Origin: Escherichia coli
Lineage (GTDB): Bacteria; Pseudomonadota; Gammaproteobacteria; Enterobacterales; Enterobacteriaceae
Assembly (NCBI RefSeq): GCF_044324785.1
Contig: NZ_CP172127.1
DNA: 64,000 nucleotides
Direction: 5' to 3' (one strand)
The translations under genes were made by a program, and so were the position numbers. Positions 31,911 through 58,760 of this stretch are shown piece after piece (the first letter of the stretch is position 1; the number at the start of each line of letters is the position of its first letter). The notes below the pieces were generated by a model. That model saw nothing but the letters and a program-made list of their open reading frames with translations, was not told where the DNA came from and did not search any database.

Positions 31911-33359
31911 TTATTCTCCATGCTCATTTTTCTTCAGCTTGCGCATCAGAAGCCACATACGTACTGTCCTGACTTTTAAATCTTTATCAGAGACGGATTC
32001 CTTCACCAGATCAGCATGATGCTGATAGCCATTAAAGAAGACGTTCAGCACAACGGCGCTAAGGGTTGCGAGCATAATGCCGCTATGCAGCAACGGTTGC
32101 AGTACGGCCGGTAACTTAGAAAAGAAATCGTGAGAGAGCGTCGGAGTCATGCCAACGCCGAGACTGATCGCTACAATATAGAGGTTGTAACGGTTAGTGG
32201 TGTAGTTACAGCGCGACAGAATTCGAATCCCTGTCGCCAGTACCATGCCGAACATCACCAGCCCAGCGCCGCCCAGCACAAATTGCGGAATGGAGGCGAC
32301 CAGCACCGCCATTTTTGGCACCATGCCAAACAGGATTAATATAATTCCCGAAGAAATACACACCCAGCGGCTATGAACGCGCGTCACGCTAACCAGGCCA
32401 ACGTTTTGTGAAAATGACGTGTGGGGGAAGCTGTTAAACGTTCCGCCTATCATTGTTCCTACGCCATCGACACGCAGCCCGCGAATAATATCGTGTGAAG
32501 AGAGTTTACGACCGACTATTTCACCCAGTGCCAGGAACATCCCCATCGACTCGATAAACACGATGATTAACACGGCAGTCATGGTCAGAATGGAAACGGG
32601 ATCGAAAATCGGCATACCAAATGACATCGGCGTGACAATCGCAAACCATGAAGCATCATGTAGCCCGGATAAATTGACTTCATTCATCATCCACGAAAGT
32701 AAAAAGCCAAATACAATCCCCAGTAATACGGCGACGTTGGACATAAATCCTTTCGCATAGCGAGTAATGAGCAAGATAAAAATTAAGACGGCAAAGGAGA
32801 TCCCCAAATAAACGGGATTACCATATTGCGGATTCCCTTTACCTCCGGCGGCCCAGTCAATACCCACCTGAATGATGCTAAGTCCGATAGAAGTAATAAC
32901 CACACCGGTAACCAGTGGCGGGAATAAAGGCATCAAGCGACCGATAAGTGGCGCTAATAATGTGGTGATAAAACCCGCGGCGATAGTGGCACCAAATATC
33001 CCCAGCAGGCCGATATCCGGGTTCATCCCAATGGCTATCATTGGTGTTACAGCGGCGAAGGTCACCGACATAATCACCGGCAGGCGGATCCCCATAAAGC
33101 GGCCGATACCGATACATTGCAATAATGTGACGATTCCGCAGCAAAAGAGATCCGAGCTAATGAGCATCGCAATAGCTTCTTTTGAGAGGCCCAGTCGGTC
33201 ACCAATCATAAGAGGAACAGCGACTGCACCTGCGTACATGACAAGGACGTGTTGCAGACCGAGTATGATCAGCTTTCCTGGTGATAATATGCGGTCAACC
33301 TCATCAGTTGGGCGGTCTTGCCCTGAAGATGAGGAAAGTTGGGAATCTATGGCGCTCAT
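31911..33359 (-). CDS. uacT: NCS2-family uric acid permease, 482 aa
   Basis: ORF 31911..33488 trimmed to ATG with AGGAGA RBS (MSAIDSQLSSSSGQDRPTDE); ~12 hydrophobic segments. Confidence 0.85.
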   Translation of the reverse strand: MSAIDSQLSSSSGQDRPTDEVDRILSPGKLIILGLQHVLVMYAGAVAVPLMIGDRLGLSKEAIAMLISSDLFCCGIVTLLQCIGIGRFMGIRLPVIMSVTFAAVTPMIAIGMNPDIGLLGIFGATIAAGFITTLLAPLIGRLMPLFPPLVTGVVITSIGLSIIQVGIDWAAGGKGNPQYGNPVYLGISFAVLIFILLITRYAKGFMSNVAVLLGIVFGFLLSWMMNEVNLSGLHDASWFAIVTPMSFGMPIFDPVSILTMTAVLIIVFIESMGMFLALGEIVGRKLSSHDIIRGLRVDGVGTMIGGTFNSFPHTSFSQNVGLVSVTRVHSRWVCISSGIILILFGMVPKMAVLVASIPQFVLGGAGLVMFGMVLATGIRILSRCNYTTNRYNLYIVAISLGVGMTPTLSHDFFSKLPAVLQPLLHSGIMLATLSAVVLNVFFNGYQHHADLVKESVSDKDLKVRTVRMWLLMRKLKKNEHGE

Positions 33360-33428
33360 CAGTGTTTCTCCTTTCGCCCGCCAGAGTAAAAAGCAACCGT
33401 TTACGTTAATGAAACTGTCTAAACACAT

Positions 33429-33443
33429 GCTCGTGGAGTGCCA
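33429..33443 (-). promoter_or_regulatory. candidate sigma54 promoter upstream of uacT (TGGCAC-N5-GAGCA)
   Basis: Minus-strand CTGGCACTCCACGAGCA read by eye; GG and GC at correct 10-bp spacing; ~70 nt upstream of uacT ATG. Confidence 0.35.
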
Positions 33444-33794
33444 GTTTTTGCGAGGAAGGGGAGTTAGAGACAGGAATTGCGGAGGCAATCACATAATCGT
33501 GGTTAAACCACGAAAATGAGAAGAGAACCTGACAATGGAATTATCTGTAATTTTCTCATATTGATATTTCATTAATCATTCTGGCATGTCGCACTCTCGC
33601 TTTTAATCGTTTTTATCTGGATAGCGCTCTTTTGGTCGGCAATGTTGAAATAATGAAAGCGGCACAGATTGAGGGGCAATAATTTGAACTCAGTCGCAAA
33701 ATTATAATTAAAACGGTCATGCTACCTAATATATGCCCGTTTATTGCATCGCGAAATTTGAGAAGACATAACTCATTAAATGAAAGGGATGCAA

Positions 33795-35714
33795 ATGAAT
33801 AAGTTTATCGCTGCTGAAGCTGCGGAATGTATAGGCTGTCATGCTTGTGAAATTGCCTGTGCGGTGGCACATAATCAAGAAAACTGGCCGCTGAGTCACA
33901 GTGACTTTCGACCGCGTATCCACGTTGTAGGGAAAGGCCAGGCTGCGAATCCGGTGGCCTGCCATCACTGCAACAATGCTCCTTGCGTTACGGCTTGTCC
34001 GGTTAATGCTCTGACTTTCCAGCCCGATAGCGTACAACTGGACGAGCAAAAATGTATTGGTTGTAAAAGATGCGCAATCGCTTGCCCCTTTGGCGTCGTT
34101 GAGATGGTCGATACGATTGCGCAGAAATGCGACCTTTGTAACCAGCGCAGTTCCGGCACGCAAGCCTGTATTGAAGTCTGCCCAACACAGGCGTTACGGC
34201 TGATGGACGATAAAGGGTTGCAGCAGATAAAGGTGGCCCGCCAGCGCAAAACGGCAGCAGGAAAAGCGTCATCAGACGCTCAGCCATCTCGCAGTGCAGC
34301 GTTGCTCCCCGTTAACTCGCGTAAAGGCGCAGATAAAATTTCAGCGAGTGAACGGAAAACCCACTTTGGCGAAATTTATTGCGGGCTGGATCCACAACAA
34401 GCGACTTTTGAGAGTGACCGCTGTGTTTATTGCGCCGAAAAAGCTAACTGCAACTGGCATTGCCCGCTGCATAACGCTATTCCGGATTACATCCGTCTGG
34501 TGCAGGAAGGAAAGATTATTGAAGCGGCAGAACTTTGCCACCAGACCAGTTCCTTGCCAGAAATCTGCGGCAGAGTTTGCCCACAGGACCGTCTTTGTGA
34601 AGGCGCATGTACTTTGAAAGATCACTCTGGCGCAGTCTCTATCGGGAATCTGGAACGCTACATCACCGATACCGCGCTGGCGATGGGCTGGCGTCCCGAT
34701 GTCAGCAAAGTTGTTCCCCGTAGCGAAAAAGTGGCGGTGATTGGCGCAGGGCCTGCAGGGTTAGGGTGTGCTGATATTCTGGCGCGCGCAGGAGTTCAGG
34801 TTGATGTCTTTGATCGCCATCCAGAAATTGGCGGTATGCTGACTTTTGGCATACCTCCTTTCAAACTCGATAAAACGGTATTAAGCCAGCGGCGAGAGAT
34901 ATTCACCGCAATGGGAATCGACTTTCATCTTAACTGTGAAATTGGCCGCGATATTACCTTTAGCGATTTAACTTCTGAATATGATGCAGTTTTCATCGGC
35001 GTGGGGACTTACGGGATGATGCGAGCAGATCTGCCGCATGAAGATGCGCCCGGTGTCATTCAGGCTCTACCGTTCCTGACTGCCCATACCCGCCAGCTCA
35101 TGGGGTTGCCGGAGTCTGAAGAGTATCCGCTGACGGATGTGGAAGGTAAGCGAGTCGTGGTATTGGGCGGTGGCGATACGACCATGGATTGTTTGCGGAC
35201 TTCCATCCGCCTCAATGCCGCCAGCGTGACCTGCGCGTATCGTCGTGATGAAGTCAGTATGCCGGGCTCGCGCAAAGAGGTGGTCAATGCGCGCGAGGAA
35301 GGTGTTGAGTTTCAGTTCAATGTTCAGCCGCAATATATCGCTTGTGACGAAGATGGGCGTTTAACTGCGGTGGGCCTGATTCGTACAGCCATGGGTGAGC
35401 CGGGGCCGGATGGTCGCCGTCGTCCTCGTCCGGTAGCGGGTTCAGAATTTGAATTGCCCGCCGATGTTCTGATTATGGCCTTTGGTTTCCAGGCGCATGC
35501 CATGCCGTGGTTGCAGGGCAGCGGAATTAAACTCGATAAATGGGGCCTGATTCAAACCGGTGACGTTGGGTATTTACCTACCCAGACGCATCTGAAAAAA
35601 GTCTTTGCTGGTGGTGATGCAGTTCATGGCGCGGATCTGGTTGTCACTGCAATGGCCGCAGGAAGGCAGGCGGCGCGCGATATGTTAACTCTGTTTGATA
35701 CGAAGGCATCGTGA
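33795..35714 (+). CDS. ygfT: AegA-like oxidoreductase: N-terminal 4x[4Fe-4S] ferredoxin domain fused to GltD-like FAD/NAD(P) domain, 639 aa
   Basis: Four CxxCxxCxxxCP motifs; dinucleotide fingerprint [21 protein letters not shown]; start at third ATG of ORF 33780..35714. Confidence 0.85.
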
Positions 35715-36202
35715 TGAAATCGTTAATTATCGTTAATCCGGCTGACTGTATTGGCTGCCGTACTTGTGAAGTGGCCTGTGTGGTCGCTCACCCTTCAGAA
35801 CAGGAGTTGAATGCCGATGTCTTTTTACCCCGGCTGAAGGTACAGCGACTGGACTGCATCAGTGCGCCGGTGATGTGCCATCAGTGTGAAAACGCCCCTT
35901 GTGTTGGCGCTTGCCCCGTGGGAGCGCTGACGATGGGCGAGCAGGTGGTGCAGGCCAATTCTGCCCGTTGTATTGGCTGTCAGAGTTGCGTCAGTGCGTG
36001 CCCGTTTGGGATGATAACCATTCAGTCGTTGCCGGGGGATACCCGGCAACAAATTGTGAAATGCGATCTCTGTGAACAGCGGGAAGAGGGGCCTGCCTGC
36101 GTTGAATCTTGCCCGACACAGGCGCTGCAGTTGCTTACTGAAAGAGAACTCAGGCGAGTCCGCCAGCAGCGTATTGTTGCCAGCGGTGAGAATCCTCTCT
36201 GA
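35714..36202 (+). CDS. ygfS: 4x[4Fe-4S] ferredoxin-type electron-transfer protein, 162 aa
   Basis: Four Cys clusters ([55 protein letters not shown]); start overlaps ygfT stop. Confidence 0.85.
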
Positions 36203-36208
36203 AAGAAA

Positions 36209-36232
36209 TCTCCGCGCTGAAAGGCGCGGAGA
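36209..36232. terminator. bidirectional terminator between convergent ygfS and ghxQ
   Basis: Perfect 9-bp stem TCTCCGCGC-tgaaag-GCGCGGAGA; U-run on minus side. Confidence 0.65.
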
Positions 36233-36237
36233 ATCTA

Positions 36238-37605
36238 TTAGATTGCCCAACCACCCGCGTAAAATGCGACCAGTGCGGCAGTAATGATCACCGTACCAAT
36301 ATTCAGCTTTTGCCATTCGCGTGCAAAGACGCGGCCTACGACCAGTGTCACAAAGCCCAGCATAATACCGGTAACGATATTACAAGTCAGAACGATGAAC
36401 ACGGCACACACCAGGCCAGCCATAGCGTCAATAAAATCATTGAAATCCAGCTTCGAGACGTTACTTAACATCAGCAAACCTACGTACATCAGAGCGGGTG
36501 CAGTGGCGTAACCAGGGATCAAAAATGACAGCGGTGATAAGAACAAAATCAGCAGGAATAACGCCCCCACTACGGTTGCGGTCAACCCTGTTTTACCCCC
36601 GGCGGCGGTTCCTGCCGCTGATTCGATATAAACCGCTGCGGGCGCTGCGCCCACCAGGCCGGAGAATATTGAACTTACTGAGTCACTGGTCAGGGCTTTG
36701 CCGCCGTTGATGATCTGGTTGTCTTTATCCAACAAATTCGCCTGACCGGCGACGGCACGGATGGTGCCAGTGGCGTCGAACACTGCGGTCATCACCAATG
36801 CTAGTACACTCGGAAGTACAGTTGGCTGGAGTGCGCCCATAATATCGAGGCTGAAAATCAGAGACTTACCATCTTCGCCAGTCAGGCTTGGCATCGCCAC
36901 CAGACCGTGGTATTTCACCGCTGGATCAAAGATTAAGCCGATGATCGAGATGGCAATAATCACCAACAAGATCCCGCCGGGTACGCGGCACTTTTCCAGA
37001 CCGAAGATGACCGCCAGCCCCAGCAAGCTCATCATCACCGGGAAGGAGGTAAACGCACCGAGCGCCACCGGCAAGCCTTCAATCGGGTTTTTGATAACCA
37101 TTCCCACACCGTTAGCAGCAATCAGCAGCAGAAACAGGCCGATACCGATACCTGTACCGTGAGCGATACCCATGGGCAAATTACGTAAGATCCAGGTACG
37201 CACACCGGTTACGGAAATGGCGGTGAAGATGACGCCCATCAGAAAGACCGCGCCCAGTGCGACAGGAACGCTAATTTGTTGCCCGAGTACCAGACTGAAT
37301 GCGGTAAACGCCGTCAAGGAAATCGCGCAACCAATCGCCATTGGCAAATTGGCCCATAACCCCATCAGCAACGAGCCGAAGCCCGCGACCAGACAGGTGG
37401 CAACAAACACAGCTGCGGGAGGAAAACCTGCTTTGCCCAGCATTCCCGGAACGACGATAACGGAATAAACCATGGCCAGAAAGGTCGTTAAGCCAGCCAG
37501 TACTTCCTGACGAACGGTACTGCCACGAGCGGTAATTTTAAAATAATTATCCAGCGCGCCCTGTGGCTTTGGTGCGTCCGGTGTTTGTAGGATGTCTCCA
37601 GACAT
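36238..37605 (-). CDS. ghxQ: NCS2-family guanine/hypoxanthine permease, 455 aa
   Basis: Full ORF, polytopic membrane protein, AzgA-like; synonym ygfQ. Confidence 0.8.
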
Positions 37606-37640: not shown

Positions 37641-38960
37641 TTAGTTGCGTTCGTACACCAGACGACCATCAACGTAGGTGCGGTAGATCGAACGGTCATC
37701 GCCCAACGTCATCATCACGAACAATTTGTCGACTAAAGAAACAGAGTTGTCATAGCGCAGCTGCTGTAGCGGAGTGGCGGTGGGTTCCATCACCACGAAA
37801 TCAGCCTCTTTGCCAGGTAAAAAGTTGCCAATCAAATCGTCAAGGCCCAGAGATTTCGCTCCGCCGAGCGTGGCCAGGTAAAATGCTTCATATGCCGAGA
37901 GGCGATAGCCTTGTAGTTGCAACACTTTGTAGGCTTCGTTTAGCGTTTGCAGCATGTTGAAAGTTGTTCCGGCACCGATATCCGTTCCCATGCCCACTTT
38001 GACTTTCTTCTGCCATGCTTTTTTCAAGTTGAATAAGCCGCTGCCGAGGTAAAGGTTGGAGGTCGGACAGAAAGCAATGCTGGATTTGGTTTCGCTGAGA
38101 CGATCCCACTCTTTTTCTTCGAGATGGACGCAGTGAGCAAAGACACAGTTTTTACCTGTCAGGCCATACTGGTGATAAACATCCAGATAGCCATCATGTT
38201 CAGGATAAAGTTCTTTCACCCAGGCAATTTCATCTTTGTTTTCACAGAGATGGGTATGTACCCACGTATCCGGATATTCTTCTTTCAGGCGTTGCGCCAT
38301 CGCCATCTGTTCAGGTGACGATGTTGGGGCGAAGCGTGGTGTAATGGCATATAACAGACGGCCATTTTTATGCCAGCGTTCGATCAGTTCTTTGCTTTGG
38401 TGATAGCTACTTTCCGCCGTGTCGAGCAGATAATCTGGCGCATTACGGTCCATCATCACTTTACCGGCAATCATTCGCATATTGATATGACTGGCGGCTT
38501 CAAACAACGCATCCACAGATTGTGGATGAACCGTACCAAACACCAGTGCCGTAGTCGTACCGTTACGTAAAAGCTGCTTGATGAAGAACGCCGACATTTC
38601 GCGGGCGTACTCTAAATCCTCATAACGACGTTCAGTAGGGAAGGTGTGTTTATTCAACCACTCCAGCAATTGCTCACCATAGGCTCCCACCATTTCACTT
38701 TGCGGATAATGGATATGTGTATCGACAAAGCCCGGTACTATCAGTTTGCCGCGATAGTCGCGCACGCGAATGGTGTCAGGAATTTGATGCTTTCCGTTTT
38801 CCCATTCGCCAAACCATTCCACTTTTCCCTGTTTAATAAGTAATAAACCATCCTCAATAAACCGCAGCGCAGAGGCAATCTCTTCCGGGTTATCGACCGT
38901 ACGGGTGACATCAATAAAACTGCCTCGTACCGCTTTTAACGTGTGTTCTCCTGACATCAT
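37641..38960 (-). CDS. guaD: guanine deaminase (amidohydrolase superfamily), 439 aa
   Basis: ORF 37641..39080 trimmed to MMSGEHTLKAVRGSF; metal-binding VDTHIHYPQ. Confidence 0.9.
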   Translation of the reverse strand: MMSGEHTLKAVRGSFIDVTRTVDNPEEIASALRFIEDGLLLIKQGKVEWFGEWENGKHQIPDTIRVRDYRGKLIVPGFVDTHIHYPQSEMVGAYGEQLLEWLNKHTFPTERRYEDLEYAREMSAFFIKQLLRNGTTTALVFGTVHPQSVDALFEAASHINMRMIAGKVMMDRNAPDYLLDTAESSYHQSKELIERWHKNGRLLYAITPRFAPTSSPEQMAMAQRLKEEYPDTWVHTHLCENKDEIAWVKELYPEHDGYLDVYHQYGLTGKNCVFAHCVHLEEKEWDRLSETKSSIAFCPTSNLYLGSGLFNLKKAWQKKVKVGMGTDIGAGTTFNMLQTLNEAYKVLQLQGYRLSAYEAFYLATLGGAKSLGLDDLIGNFLPGKEADFVVMEPTATPLQQLRYDNSVSLVDKLFVMMTLGDDRSIYRTYVDGRLVYERN

Positions 38961-45567: not shown

Positions 45568-48500
45568 TTACACCTCCACGCGGCCCAGCAGATAATGATG
45601 ATGCTGGTGGACATGGCTAATGATGCGGCACATATCGTTCAGCTCCGGTGGTACGTTGTTGAACTGACCTTCGCTGTCGATGTTTAACACCCAGCTTTGG
45701 TTATTCAGACGTACTCGTACCCGGCAATCTTCCACAAGGAAGCCTGGGTTGCTGCTGTTATCAAAGTCTTGCGACAGGCTGAAGACGGTGATTTTGTCTT
45801 TGTACGGTTTACCGTTCCACGGACAGAACTGAGCGCAGTTGCCGCATTCGTTACAGTAAGCGTCGAGGTGCAGCGTCTGGAAACGGTTCTGGAAGCCAGG
45901 GACCGCAATGGAGACGTTGGCGCGGTTCGGGCAGACATCCACACACTTGCTGCAAACGTAGTTACATTCAAGGCAGCGAGCAGCTTCCTGCGCGACAAAC
46001 GCATCACGATCGTCACTGTTCACCAGCGTGATAGAGATATCGCCTTTACGTTGATAGATTTCCGCCGGATTGACGTTGTTCCAGTATTTATCGTTCTGGT
46101 GGGAACGGATATTTTCCCGACTAAGGATGGCATCGGTCGCCCGACGCGCGGTTCCGACAGCAGCGACAATGGAGGATGGTCCGCGCTGTACGTCGCCGAT
46201 CATAAAGACGTCAGTCAGACGAGTTTCGCCATTATGGTCGACGTCTGGCCAGCCGTTTTTGTCCAGCGGCACGCCCATCGCATTCAGGGCTTCAGTATCC
46301 TGCTGTTCACCAATGGCGGTGATCAGGCTGTCTACATGCAGTGTTACTGTTTCGTTGGTTTCAACCGGACGGCGACGACCTTTCTCATCAGGTTCGCCAA
46401 GCGACATAACGCGCAAGGTTAAGGTGCCATCAGCATCGAAACGTTCCGGATTATTCAGGAAACGGAACTCCACGCCGTCGTGCAACGCTTCTTCATACTC
46501 TTCGCGCCATGCTGGCATCTCTTGCAGTGAACGACGGTAAACGACCGTTGCTTTTTCTACGCCTGGAACGCGTAACGCCGCACGAGCGCAGTCCATTGCC
46601 GTGTTACCCGCCCCGACAACGACCACATGTTTGCCCAGCTTGAGCGCTGTGCCCTTGTTGTATTCACGCAGGAAGGGGAGTGATTTCCAGACATTTTGGT
46701 TGTCGCCCGCCAGTTTCACACCGCTATTTTTATCAGTGCCGGTGGCAATCAGAACATAGTGGAAGCCCTGATTTTTTAACTGTTCAACGGTCAAATCGGG
46801 TGAGCAGCCATACTCAAATTTCACGCCGTGAGCGGCAACAAAATCGATATCGTGCTGAATTAACTCTGCAGGAATACGGAACTGAGGAATGATATTTTTC
46901 ACCACGCCGCCCGCATTGGCTTCGCGTTCAAACAGCGTAACCGGATGGCCCGCTCTGGCAAGGAAGTAACCTGCTGCCAGACCCGCCGGACCTGCACCAA
47001 TCACGGCAACCGGATGGCGTGAACCAGAACCGGCTGGTTTGTGCCAGCGTTGCTTATATTCATCCCAACCTTTTTCCAGCGCGACTTTTTTCAGTTCGCG
47101 GATATTCAGCGCACTGTCGTAATCCAGGCGGGTACAGTTGTATTGGCACTGGTGATCGCAAATATGACCGGTAATGGCGGGCAGGGCGTTGCGTTGGTAG
47201 ATGAGTTCCAGTGCGTCGGCATAGCGGTGTTCGCCAAGCAGACGGATGTATTCCGGAATATCCTGTTTAATGGCGCAAGCAGTAACGCACGGTGCAACGT
47301 AGCAGTCGGTCAGCGGCAGGTCTTCTGCCACTTCAATACGCTCTTCTGGCTTCCAGTGTTTCTGAGTGTATTCCATGGTTAACGCGTCTGCTGCCAGTTT
47401 GTTCAGTCGTTCGACGTCAACATGGTCAAGCCCCCAGGCGTCGGAGCCTTCCAGCTCGCGCATGCAGGCACTTAAGCGCAGATAGCCGCCAGGTTTCAGC
47501 AGGTCGGTTGCCATCGTGATAGGGCGAATACCAGTATCAAAAATATCGCGGATAGTCAGCTGACTGGCACCACCGGAATAAGAAATGGGCAGTTTGCCGT
47601 CAAAGGCGCGAGAGAGAACTGCTGCAACATTGATGGAGAGCGGGAACAGCGCACGGCCTGACATATACATCTCTTCACCAGGCAGTGCGCCTTTATTGTT
47701 GATGGTGCCGAGAGTGTTAGTCAGTTTTACGCCAAAGCCGAGTGATTTTTCTTTTGCCAGTGCCATCAGACGTTCCAGCATTTCCAGTGCTTGCGTCAGC
47801 TTGAGGTCGTGATCAAATGACTCTTCTTTTAAGCCTATGTAACCGAAACCGCAGACATCGAGGATCTCACGAACACGCGCGTACCCCAGTAAGGTCGGGT
47901 TGAGTTTCACAAAGGTATTGAGCCCTTTTTCTTCCAGCATGTAGCGGCAAATGGCTTCGATTTCATGCGGAGGACAGCCGTGCATGGTGGAGAGGGTGAC
48001 GCCCTGCACCATGCTGGTGGGGATGCGAGCGGGTAAGGCTTGCAAGCTTTCGCGTTTTTCCTGCAATCCGTGGCGGGCTAAAAATGCGTCATCCTGGAGT
48101 AATTTATTCAGCGTATCGCGATATTGAGCGAATTTCGGATGGTCAGATGCGTCCATCATATTGTCGATGAACTGTTGCATCGGCGGTTGCTTAATACCTT
48201 CGAGGTTGTAACCGACGCTCATATTAAAGATGAACGATTTACCGGAATCAGAAGGCTGGAACATCGCTTCGAGAAGGTGCAGGGCAAACCAGGCTTTGAG
48301 GTATTCATCCCAGGCTTTAAGCAGGGTAAATTCGGTGGACCATTCGGTGTTAAAGCACTCGTCTTCGGCATCAATACAGGGCTTTTCCAGCTCCAGGCGG
48401 TCAAGAATTTGGACGGTTTTTAGTTCGATGAAGCGTCCGCCAGTCAGCCAGGAAGTGACAATATTTTGCGCGAGCTGCGTGTGCGGGCCAGCGGCAGGGC

Positions 48501-48666
48501 CGACGGGAGTGGCACAGGTTTCACCGAAGACGCTAACAGTTTTACCTTTTACGGGTGAGTAAAACTGTTGCTCGGGAATACCAAAGATTGAGCGTTGTTG
48601 TTGGTATTCATCAAATATGCGCGTCAAAAGTTCCTCAAACGGAATGGGACGCATAATATCCCCCAT
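45568..48666 (-). CDS. ygfK: large Fe-S flavoprotein oxidoreductase (GltD/dihydropyrimidine-dehydrogenase-like with 4Fe-4S clusters), 1032 aa
   Basis: Dinucleotide fingerprints [28 protein letters not shown] and VVVVGAGNTAMDCARAAL; ferredoxin motifs CLECNYVCSKCVDVCP and CNECGNCAQFCP; AGGAG RBS. Confidence 0.85.
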   Translation of the reverse strand: MGDIMRPIPFEELLTRIFDEYQQQRSIFGIPEQQFYSPVKGKTVSVFGETCATPVGPAAGPHTQLAQNIVTSWLTGGRFIELKTVQILDRLELEKPCIDAEDECFNTEWSTEFTLLKAWDEYLKAWFALHLLEAMFQPSDSGKSFIFNMSVGYNLEGIKQPPMQQFIDNMMDASDHPKFAQYRDTLNKLLQDDAFLARHGLQEKRESLQALPARIPTSMVQGVTLSTMHGCPPHEIEAICRYMLEEKGLNTFVKLNPTLLGYARVREILDVCGFGYIGLKEESFDHDLKLTQALEMLERLMALAKEKSLGFGVKLTNTLGTINNKGALPGEEMYMSGRALFPLSINVAAVLSRAFDGKLPISYSGGASQLTIRDIFDTGIRPITMATDLLKPGGYLRLSACMRELEGSDAWGLDHVDVERLNKLAADALTMEYTQKHWKPEERIEVAEDLPLTDCYVAPCVTACAIKQDIPEYIRLLGEHRYADALELIYQRNALPAITGHICDHQCQYNCTRLDYDSALNIRELKKVALEKGWDEYKQRWHKPAGSGSRHPVAVIGAGPAGLAAGYFLARAGHPVTLFEREANAGGVVKNIIPQFRIPAELIQHDIDFVAAHGVKFEYGCSPDLTVEQLKNQGFHYVLIATGTDKNSGVKLAGDNQNVWKSLPFLREYNKGTALKLGKHVVVVGAGNTAMDCARAALRVPGVEKATVVYRRSLQEMPAWREEYEEALHDGVEFRFLNNPERFDADGTLTLRVMSLGEPDEKGRRRPVETNETVTLHVDSLITAIGEQQDTEALNAMGVPLDKNGWPDVDHNGETRLTDVFMIGDVQRGPSSIVAAVGTARRATDAILSRENIRSHQNDKYWNNVNPAEIYQRKGDISITLVNSDDRDAFVAQEAARCLECNYVCSKCVDVCPNRANVSIAVPGFQNRFQTLHLDAYCNECGNCAQFCPWNGKPYKDKITVFSLSQDFDNSSNPGFLVEDCRVRVRLNNQSWVLNIDSEGQFNNVPPELNDMCRIISHVHQHHHYLLGRVEV

Positions 48667-48748
48667 AACCCTCTCCTTAGCTTATACAGATATCATTGAG
48701 TGACCGGTGTTGAGAAATCCGGTGGTTTAGGGGGATAGAGCAACAATC

Positions 48749-48764
48749 GCACCACTCTTGCCAG
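48749..48764 (-). promoter_or_regulatory. candidate sigma54 promoter upstream of ygfK (CTGGCAAG-N4-GTGC)
   Basis: Minus-strand CTGGCAAGAGTGGTGCG read by eye; GG/GC spacing correct; ~85 nt upstream of ygfK ATG. Confidence 0.35.
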
Positions 48765-48833: not shown

Positions 48834-48987
48834 GGTGCCAAATGAGAATTAAAATCACTCCTGAAAATTATTATTGCCAGCCCATTTATCACTTTTTCTC
48901 TTTTCTCAAAATCAGTGATTCCTTATCATTATGATAAAGAGAACTGGAAGGGTTAAATATTTGAACGCAATCGTTTAACTACGTTTT

Positions 48988-58284: not shown

Positions 58285-58760
58285 AAAGTCCCGGTAGTGG
58301 AATGACAGGCAAAGAGGTTTATTTCACTGTGACTTGCCAAAAGTGATTGGTCTTTTCACAGCTATACCTGGGACTAACAATAACTATGCCAGAATTATCC
58401 AAGCGGCTGCAAAAGACTAATTTGACGGGTAATGTGTGGGGTTGATCACAAATTGATGCCAGCTTCTGGTTGTTTGTAAAATACGAAAACGTTTGGCTTT
58501 TTTTATCGCGTTATTTATTTGCTGCTAAGTATCAGAAATAAGATAAAGGGGCAGGTTATCCCTCGTCAGTTTGATAAACTCACCGCCGTAATTCTCATAT
58601 TGATATAGAAATGTGATATCTCTTCCATAATTTCATTAGAAAGTGATAAAAATCTTATGTTTTTATCAAAGCCAATTTCGTCTGAGTTAATATCATCATG
58701 ATCTGTGAACCATCAACGTCTTCAATGATCGACTTTTAAGTAAGTCTGGAAGGTAAAGCT

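Follow-up and report, generated by a model that had tools for sequence, protein, structure and literature searches.

How does reducing power enter the anaerobic degradation of uric acid in Escherichia coli, and do the adjacent genes ygfT and ygfS encode its point of entry? We examined this pair in a 64,000-nucleotide stretch of an E. coli chromosome (the window), which is collinear with strain N3 and, reversed, with K-12. The whole xdh/ygf uricolytic cluster lies inside the window, with ygfT-ygfS at one end of it. Anaerobic urate degradation by gut bacteria has been described as influencing host urate, and it is being engineered into gout probiotics. Formate dependence of urate degradation was reportedly noted in 1980, in work on termite-gut Enterococcus. 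The catalytic steps are now known, and ygfT-ygfS is the obvious candidate for the point where reducing power enters, that of formate above all. Production of NAD(P)H from formate, or direct wiring to XdhD or YgfK, would, if true, explain the formate dependence and could guide strain engineering.

The locus is nothing other than the known and already named ygfT(uacF)-ygfS operon of E. coli. The finding is already known, and nothing in it goes beyond current annotation: both RefSeq and NCBIfam call the first protein "formate-dependent uric acid utilization protein YgfT". According to Iwadate & Kato (2019), as cited by Liu et al. (10.1101/2022.07.24.501321), aegA and ygfT are needed for anaerobic urate degradation that depends on formate and formate dehydrogenase H (FDH-H). 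As cited, the same authors proposed AegA and YgfT as the carriers by which formate dehydrogenase would deliver electrons to NADP+ or urate. Liu et al. also report that ygfT and ygfK are highly induced by urate and aegA only modestly. The cited genetics support a role for YgfT in formate/FDH-H-dependent anaerobic urate degradation; its biochemical role is a proposal. On balance, we think that YgfT and YgfS act together in the cytoplasm as an electron-transfer unit serving the anaerobic reductive uric acid pathway, with electrons passing from formate through FdhF, YgfS and YgfT to NAD(P)+.

An earlier reading of the DNA letters (the original prediction) had seen in the pair a dedicated module for the input or output of low-potential electrons, with a link to formate, hydrogen or NAD(P)H, beside the urate permease. 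The RefSeq name, the cited genetics and the induction by urate support this description. Its suggestion that the purine pathway is redox-coupled rather than oxygen-dependent agrees with the E. coli pathway, which was shown in 2025 to be reductive (PMC12507026).

The ygfT-ygfS gene pair

The gene ygfT (also uacF; K-12 b2887) is an open reading frame at 33795-35714 on the plus strand. It encodes an Fe-S flavoprotein of 639 aa. RefSeq annotates it in strain N3, which is 99.6% identical, and the protein matches NCBIfam model NF009451. The next gene, ygfS, at 35714-36202 on the plus strand, encodes a ferredoxin-like protein of 162 aa with four predicted [4Fe-4S] clusters (RefSeq; Pfam Fer4_11; 16 Cys). 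The outer limits of the pair (33795-36202) had been given exactly in the original prediction, as judged from the open reading frames and RefSeq. The overlap of the two genes was also foreseen: at GTGATG (35711-35716, plus strand; junction cGTGATGaaa), the ygfT stop codon TGA (35712-35714) and the ygfS start codon ATG (35714-35716) have one base in common. An alternative ygfS start at GTG 35711 would give a 4-nt overlap with ygfT.

The ygfT start is ATG 33795, which is annotated in RefSeq, is the sole ATG kept in relatives and has AAGGGA ahead of it. Upstream in-frame ATGs at 33780 and 33789 were considered as starts and ruled out, as they are absent from relatives in the alignment of the uacT-ygfT spacer described below. 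On the other side of that spacer, which is 435 bp long, lies the divergent uacT (ygfU), encoding a urate/H+ symporter (31911-33359, minus strand; RefSeq annotation and translation). The divergent arrangement was thus correctly described beforehand.

Compared with K-12, 29 of the 1920 nucleotides of ygfT differ, and only two codons differ at the protein level. This argues for purifying selection on the plus-strand frame, with antisense open reading frames as by-products. Such frames within ygfT and ygfS (for example, 33741-34163 and 35825-36316, both minus strand) were rejected as coding, given that the plus-strand frames match curated families with E=0. Amino acid identity to K-12 is 99.7% for YgfT (differences S77P and Y205F) and 98.8% for YgfS (S48C and T81A).

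Of 5426 complete E. coli genomes, 5330 contain a match to a 3-kb query around ygfT-ygfS, with 95-99.6% identity and a median of one place per genome; coverage of the query is below 80% in 150 of the 5330. In at least one genome, that of strain GMF054, an insertion of the IS911 family splits ygfT, which is annotated there as two fragments.

Architecture and family of YgfT

YgfT begins with a HycB/HydN-like domain (residues 1-140; 33795-34214, plus strand) that is predicted to bind four [4Fe-4S] clusters. It matches Pfam Fer4_11/Fer4_7, and its best PDB sequence match is HycB (7z0s_B, E=1.8e-30). Its 16 cysteines fall in four 4-Cys motifs at residues 12-22, 56-68, 87-97 and 112-129. A linker follows (residues 141-187; 34215-34355, plus strand), which is rich in Lys, Arg, Ser and Ala and weakly conserved (mostly "x" in the consensus). 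In the AlphaFold2 model its predicted local distance difference test (pLDDT) values are 52-69 in 10-residue blocks over 141-180, with a dip below 50 at 157-163.

The linker leads to a Fer4_20 domain of the type found in GltD and dihydropyrimidine dehydrogenase (DPD) (residues 188-298; 34356-34688, plus strand; Pfam PF14691, E=1.1e-36; aligned to 6s6s_G). Cysteines 210/213/219/223 and 258/262/268/272 are spaced as C210-x2-C-x5-C-x3-CP and C258-x3-C-x5-C-x3-C. These eight further conserved cysteines lead us to predict two more [4Fe-4S] clusters, so that YgfT would carry six. The original prediction had put four CxxCxxCxxxCP clusters in YgfT and four more in YgfS. Each protein does have four 4-Cys motifs, 16 Cys in YgfS, but only the third motif is literally of that form in either. 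In both the YgfT N-terminal domain and YgfS, the last residues of motif 1 are CA or CV, and the cysteines of motifs 2 and 4 are spaced more widely (CxxCx4CxxxCP and CxxCx8-9CxxxCP). For YgfT the total of four falls short, given the eight additional cysteines and the six clusters they imply.

The C-terminal part of YgfT is an FAD/NAD(P)H-binding Pyr_redox_2 domain (residues 312-623; 34728-35663, plus strand; FAD, flavin adenine dinucleotide), assigned by Pfam PF07992, TIGR01318 and its motifs. The motif GAGPAG (317-322) is that for FAD. GGGDTTMD (458-465) and YRR (482-484) are the motifs of the NADPH site in GltD-family proteins. The Pfam matches and these motifs bear out the fusion of a ferredoxin domain to a dinucleotide-binding, GltD-like module, which takes up residues 188-639. 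In an alignment of 37 YgfT/AegA homologues, conservation of the 16+8 cluster cysteines is complete or at least 90%, and the nucleotide motifs vary little or not at all.

Family models place the protein clearly. YgfT scores 1502.2 bits against the YgfT equivalog NF009451 (cut-off 1154), with residues 1-639 aligned to profile positions 1-639. It also has the architecture (16-Cys ferredoxin domain, Fer4_20, Pyr_redox_2) and the genomic position (divergent from a urate permease, in the uricolytic cluster) that go with that family. It scores 849 bits against TIGR01318 (gltD_gamma_fam), above the cut-off of 483, and 952.4 bits against the AegA model NF009408, below the cut-off of 1003. By these scores YgfT is a paralogue of AegA and not AegA itself.

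Proteins that NCBI names as YgfT occur across Enterobacterales (Klebsiella, Raoultella, Salmonella arizonae/diarizonae, Mixta, Cedecea). Close homologues without that name occur in Erwinia, Pantoea and Arsenophonus.

The AlphaFold2 model of YgfT is of moderate confidence (pLDDT 75.7; predicted template modelling score 0.70), and its Fe-S regions are low. Foldseek searches with this model returned NfnI-L and the glutamate synthase (GltS) beta subunit as best matches (TM-score normalised to the target, 0.85-0.88), and otherwise GltD, Nfn and DPD folds. None of the Foldseek matches is a solved chain that spans both YgfT domains (TM-score normalised to the query, at most 0.66). In sequence searches of the PDB the C-terminal module matches Azospirillum GltS beta (6s6s_G, E=2e-108), and also NfnB/NfnI-L, Nfn-ABC, Stn and DPD.

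These structural neighbours bring in the idea of electron bifurcation. The FAD of YgfT might split or merge electrons between a low-potential branch (the YgfT N-terminal domain, YgfS and FdhF) and a second branch, as in Nfn. The nearest structures do include the bifurcating NfnI large subunit, Nfn-ABC and Stn. The Vanoni review (PMC8097209) raises the idea for both AegA and YgfT: it presents each as a GltD-like module joined to a ferredoxin domain and considers that they may depend on NAD(P)H or bifurcate electrons. However, no NfnA/NfnS partner (2Fe-2S plus FAD) lies next to ygfT in any locus examined, which leaves YgfT outside the Nfn systems as so defined, and the identity is about 60% to the non-bifurcating GltD as against about 35% to NfnB. 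We consider bifurcation or confurcation by YgfT very improbable.

YgfS and its FdhF-linked relatives

The 16 cysteines of YgfS that are assigned to clusters lie in four motifs at residues 12-22, 55-67, 86-96 and 117-133, and they are invariant in 18 YgfS orthologues. They are also invariant among six E. coli paralogues: YgfS, the YgfT N-terminal domain, the AegA N-terminal domain, HydN, YsaA and HycB. YgfS is 46-48% identical to the YgfT N-terminal domain and 43-47% identical to AegA-N, HydN, YsaA and HycB. Its best PDB match is HycB (7z0s_B, E=1.9e-30); the next matches, for YgfS and the YgfT N-terminal domain alike, are HycB3/HycB4 of hydrogen-dependent CO2 reductase (HDCR). HycB is the subunit of formate hydrogenlyase (FHL) that carries FdhF.

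With sixteen alignable cysteines in four motifs, both YgfS and the YgfT N-terminal domain belong to the HycB/HydN type. Neither is HydN: against the HydN equivalog NF007658 (cut-off 260), YgfS scores 134.7 bits and the YgfT domain 120.5 bits. YgfS has no equivalog of its own; the models that fit part of it best are HydN and, in their N-terminal portions, those of AegA and YgfT. It appears to be a stand-alone four-cluster paralogue with a predicted content of 16 Fe. We found no functional statement about YgfS in the literature.

A seventeenth cysteine, Cys48 (codon 35855-35857), lies outside the cluster motifs of YgfS. It is Ser in K-12 and Ser or another residue in all aligned orthologues, and is thus a strain-specific S48C change relative to K-12.

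Conservation of the pair in other genomes

A scan of genome contigs for YgfT returned 12 loci, of which four (Dickeya, Pantoea and two from Enterovibrio) matched only the GltD-like part. The Dickeya locus is a genuine gltD beside gltB, and the Pantoea locus looks alike. Matches in Escherichia sp. MOD1-EC7003 and E. coli SCPM-O-B-8794 are on broken or split contigs and were left out of the interpretation.

The overlap of ygfT and ygfS, by 1 or 4 nt, is kept in Klebsiella, Salmonella diarizonae, Mixta, Pseudocitrobacter and a metagenomic contig (L019). In Pseudocitrobacter the gene order is as in E. coli. In Klebsiella and Salmonella diarizonae, the permease gene is divergent from ygfT-ygfS, which converges on ssnA-ygfK, followed by mocA, yqeC and yqeB. 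In Mixta, ygfT-ygfS is divergent from a fused Mo/FAD Xdh gene, with mocA, ygeV, ygeW and ygeX near. Buttiauxella keeps the order ygfT-ygfS and has adjoining xdh-like genes, mocA, ygeV and ygeWXY. On contig L019 the sole nearby pathway-related genes are of the xdh type, about 7 kb off. A gene of the Xan_ur_permease family is divergent from ygfT in Klebsiella, Salmonella diarizonae, Pseudocitrobacter and Arsenophonus; in Arsenophonus there are no uricolytic genes within 9 kb of ygfT. This comparison across genera points to the linkage of ygfT with the permease or xdh genes as the conserved core, and to ygfS as a frequent, not a universal, partner.

Also present in Klebsiella (L004, 1772-3919) and Salmonella diarizonae (L026, 2538-4685) is a gene for a conserved 715-aa protein with no Pfam match on record. 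It sits between xdh-like genes and the urate-type permease gene near ygfT-ygfS, and E. coli has no counterpart there.

Older names suggest a function apart from urate. In K-12 the proteins are called "putative oxidoreductase YgfT" and "putative electron transport protein YgfS", and many databases list YgfT as "glutamate synthase small chain". These names would suit a general anaerobic redox protein (a homologue of the glutamate synthase small subunit, linked to "selenate reductase") that merely lies near purine genes. Yet the linkage to the urate permease, xdh and ssnA-ygfK genes is kept across genera, and ygfT is reported to be urate-induced and co-regulated with pathway genes through YgeV. 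Also, no gltB adjoins ygfT, whereas a genuine gltD has gltB immediately upstream, which sets ygfT apart from the gene for a glutamate synthase small subunit. We therefore hold a role that is not specific to urate to be extremely improbable.

A proposed route for electrons

The reactions to be supplied with electrons were described by Li et al. (2025; PMC12507026). XdhD-YgfM with NADH reduces urate to 2,8-dioxopurine, YgfK-SsnA with NAD(P)H dearomatises this product and opens its ring, and HyuA, YgeW/YqeA, YgeY and YgeX complete the conversion to pyruvate. The pathway needs four electrons, and both reductases take NAD(P)H. In the cited text YgfT figures only as "UacF", uncharacterised; a 2025 review calls the operon uacF-ygfS.

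In the route that we favour, formate would be oxidised by FdhF, which would dock on a HycB-like surface, most likely that of YgfS acting as a dedicated adaptor of the HydN/YsaA type. Electrons would pass through the four clusters of YgfS, the four of the YgfT N-terminal domain and the two of the GltD type to FAD, which would reduce NAD(P)+. The resulting NAD(P)H would be used by XdhD-YgfM for conversion of urate to 2,8-dioxopurine and by YgfK-SsnA for dearomatisation and ring opening. YgfTS and FdhF together would thereby act as a soluble formate:NAD(P)+ oxidoreductase that diverts formate electrons from H2 production to purine reduction. The E0' of the CO2/formate couple, at about -420 mV, lies below the -320 mV of NAD(P)+/NAD(P)H, so that electron flow in the proposed direction would be downhill.

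The choice of YgfS as adaptor draws on two-hybrid data. Pinske (2018; PMC6004506) groups HydN, YsaA, HycB, HyfA, AegA, YgfS and YgfT as paralogues and reports that AegA binds HycB, HydN, YsaA and HyfA, and not FdhF, and that FdhF binds HycB, HydN and YsaA weakly. This pattern suggests a small HydN-like adaptor between FdhF and proteins of the AegA/YgfT type. Given that AegA binds HydN and YsaA rather than FdhF, and that ygfT has its own overlapping HydN/YsaA-like gene, we propose YgfS as this adaptor. In Pectobacterium, an operon of "aegA" plus a ferredoxin gene is reported to be co-regulated with focA, fdhF, hydN and FHL genes.

Several observations weigh against the route from formate to NAD(P)+. 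In glutamate synthase, electrons run through the GltD-like module from NADPH to Fe-S clusters, and the direction of flow through such a module is not readable from sequence. The non-binding of FdhF by AegA is one such point, and in the same report deletion of aegA left the benzyl-viologen activity of FDH-H unchanged (PMC6004506). For the reconstituted XdhD-YgfM and YgfK-SsnA, NAD(P)H alone was enough, and YgfTS is therefore not required catalytically (PMC12507026). Papers on engineered strains describe native urate degradation that depends on aegA/ygfT as almost negligible. We found no biochemical assay of YgfT or YgfS in the literature; to judge from citations of Iwadate & Kato (2019), a ygfT deletion with a urate phenotype is already published. 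Finally, ygfS is not beside ygfT in two lineages, and may therefore be dispensable or replaced in some. In Citrobacter sp. R56 a 64-bp gap after ygfT is followed by ghxQ (L008, 11911-11975), and in Arsenophonus ygfT is divergent from a urate-type permease gene with no ygfS downstream (L025, 10950-11518).

The family resemblance to GltD prompts the reverse assignment, in which YgfT would oxidise NADPH and release single electrons through its Fe-S chain and YgfS, the need for formate being indirect. Possible acceptors would be the Fe-S/Mo centre of XdhD, the maturation or activation of a selenium-molybdenum cofactor (SeMoco), or another low-potential acceptor. The C-terminal domain is about 60% identical to GltD with its NADPH motifs conserved, the cluster also encodes the SeMoco-related yqeB, yqeC and mocA, and the lack of AegA-FdhF binding (PMC6004506) fits as well. 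Set against these are the cited genetics, which link the function to formate and FDH-H, and the fact that the YgfT N-terminal domain and YgfS are closest to the FdhF-linked HycB, HydN and YsaA. We regard electron flow in the GltD direction as distinctly improbable.

Formate electrons might also bypass NAD(P)H. The Fe-S chain of YgfS and YgfT could carry electrons from FdhF straight to the Fe-S centres of XdhD-YgfM and/or YgfK, in a formate:urate oxidoreductase supercomplex whose GltD-like flavin would serve only as a secondary point where NAD(P)H comes in or leaves. A wire that docks at both ends would be well served by a pair of HycB-like modules of which one is fused and the other free. Gene positions fit also, as ygfT-ygfS adjoins ssnA-ygfK in Klebsiella and Salmonella diarizonae and is divergent from the fused Xdh gene in Mixta and Buttiauxella. 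Moreover, the xanthine/urate couple lies at about -360 mV, which makes NADH a poor and formate a better reductant of urate. However, XdhD reduces urate with NADH and is isolated together with YgfM, an FAD subunit of its own, YgfK likewise possesses a FAD/NAD(P)H site (PMC12507026), and some species that carry ygfT are without ygfS. Direct wiring seems unlikely, and delivery of formate electrons as NAD(P)H is the reading that we retain.

The uacT-ygfT spacer and regulation

We aligned six uacT-ygfT spacers from Escherichia, Citrobacter and Pseudocitrobacter and identified four invariant blocks. One of them is ATGCCCGTTTATTGCA (33733-33748, plus strand), a sigma-54-like element 46 nt upstream of the ygfT ATG and a candidate ygfT promoter. 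Its -12 element (TTGCA) is perfect and its -24 element degenerate. Of 9 taxa scanned, 8 have an equivalent at a distance of 33-60 nt upstream of ygfT, the exception being Pseudocitrobacter (L003). On the other side, TGGCACTCCACGAGCA (33428-33443, minus strand; TGGCAC-N5-GAGCA) resembles a sigma-54 -24/-12 promoter and lies about 68 nt upstream of the uacT ATG, as expected of a candidate uacT promoter. Its GG-N10-GC core is kept in all six aligned relatives, and eight other taxa have canonical equivalents.

Between them, the invariant central 15-mer TTCTCATATTGATAT (33553-33567; no strand assigned) is a candidate enhancer site for the sigma-54 activator YgeV (IsrR). It belongs to the palindrome family TT(C/A)TCA-N3-TGA(G/T)AA and has an exact second copy in the ygeW-ygeV spacer (58592-58606). 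If up to three mismatches are allowed, the window holds 9 matches where 1.3 would be expected; one of the 9 is a palindrome upstream of ygfK (48923-48937). In the papers searched, we found no description of TTCTCATATTGATAT as an enhancer. A one-mismatch copy, TTCGCATATTGATAT, lies inside the guaD coding sequence (38474-38488). The fourth invariant block of the spacer is around TCACATAAT, at about 33475-33496.

Klebsiella, Salmonella diarizonae, Mixta, Buttiauxella, Arsenophonus and a metagenomic contig have nearly the same three-part layout. A canonical sigma-54 site faces the divergent gene, one with a weak -24 element lies 33-60 nt from ygfT, and in the middle is a palindrome match, which is loose (3-4 mismatches) in some taxa. 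A search for canonical sigma-54 sites with up to two mismatches returned 45 in the window against 44 expected, and its one match in the spacer is on the uacT side; the ygfT-side element was found only through conservation across genera. No sigma-70 site was found in the 435-bp spacer with a consensus scan. There is no FNR box (TTGAT-N4-ATCAA, up to two mismatches) in the spacer, and the count of such boxes across the window is at chance.

In the work of Lamoureux et al. (2023; PMC10602906), ygfT and uacT are members of the YgeV iModulon, together with xdhABC, ygeWXY, hyuA, ygfK, ssnA, ygfM and xdhD, and expression of ygfT is cited as reduced in a ygeV mutant. A published RpoN genomic SELEX (gSELEX) screen lists the ygeV/ygeW spacer and not the uacT-ygfT spacer. 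From the layout of the spacer we infer YgeV-dependent co-regulation of ygfTS with the pathway, by way of the predicted promoters and enhancer.

Two further sigma-54-like elements lie on the minus strand of the window. TGGTGCGATTGTTGCT (48739-48754) is 73 nt upstream of ygfK, and we have seen no report of it. TGGCATAGTTATTGTT (58376-58391) is 95 nt upstream of ygeW and is in line with gSELEX data and with predictions already published.

A fuller scheme would join docking and regulation, and we put it forward tentatively. In this scheme YgfS would dock the selenoprotein FdhF onto YgfT. The product would be a formate:NAD(P)+ oxidoreductase in soluble form or, with XdhD/YgfK, a formate:urate supercomplex. 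Such an assembly would compete with FHL for FdhF and would be switched on, together with the uricolytic genes, by YgeV through the divergent sigma-54 promoter pair around the TTnTCA-N3-TGAnAA enhancer.

Surrounding genes

The gene order in the window begins with lysS, idi, yqfH/yqfG, uacT (minus strand) and ygfT-ygfS (plus). After ygfS, the minus strand encodes ghxQ, guaD, xanQ, xdhD, ygfM, ssnA, ygfK (a flavin/Fe-S reductase, 45568-48666) and mocA, followed by yqeC and yqeB on the plus strand. Beyond yqeB are a carbamate kinase gene, hyuA, ygeY, ygeX, ygeW, ygeV, xdhC, xdhB and xdhA, all on the minus strand except ygeV. All of these genes are open reading frames, and the portion of xdhA within the window is a single open frame.

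Between the convergent ygfS and ghxQ, a terminator scan identified a GC-rich, terminator-like hairpin with a 9-bp stem (36209-36232; no strand assigned). Its T-run is only on the minus (ghxQ) side. The end of the ygfTS transcript may rest on the hairpin alone or on another element. No RNA family was found between 33200 and 36400 with Rfam at E values up to 1.

Comparison with known systems

The C-terminal module of YgfT is most like GltD (TIGR01318/TIGR01317; 6S6S chain G, 2VDC chain G). Residues of about 187-636 are 59-60% identical to enterobacterial GltD (Dickeya, Pantoea), and YgfT retains the two Cys clusters as well as the motifs for FAD and NADPH. Unlike GltD, YgfT has no GltB partner gene and has a four-cluster ferredoxin domain fused at its N-terminus instead. 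The spacer in the first Cys motif is 4 residues in GltD and 5 in YgfT.

NfnB/NfnI-L, Nfn-ABC and Stn (5JCA_L, 4YLF_B, 9N5U, 9BOV, 8OH5) have, like YgfT, the GltD-like fold, two [4Fe-4S] clusters, FAD and an NADPH site. These structures are without the HycB-like N-terminal domain of YgfT, which is only about 35% identical to them and has no NfnA-type partner gene.

YgfK has Fer4_20 and Pyr_redox_2 domains and a regulon in common with YgfT, which scores 237 bits against TIGR03315 (Se_ygfK) over residues 216-632. YgfK has an extra domain for flavin mononucleotide (FMN) and substrate and a demonstrated substrate (PMC12507026), whereas YgfT has electron-transfer domains only.

The HycB/HydN/YsaA/HyfA family (HycB, 7Z0S chain B; HycB3/HycB4 of HDCR, 7QV7) has 16 Cys and 43-48% identity in common with YgfS and the YgfT N-terminal domain. 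HycB has an insertion of about 30 residues and a C-terminal tail that YgfS lacks, and YgfS is encoded apart from hydrogenase genes.

AegA (b2468, NF009408) is the closest comparison for the full length of YgfT. Like YgfT, it has a HycB-like 16-Cys domain followed by Fer4_20 and Pyr_redox_2; the two proteins are 55% identical over their full length and, according to the literature, fall in the same phenotype class. They differ in genomic setting: aegA is monocistronic by narQ/nudK, with no ferredoxin gene downstream (K-12, Brenneria), whereas ygfT is followed by ygfS and forms part of the uricolytic cluster.

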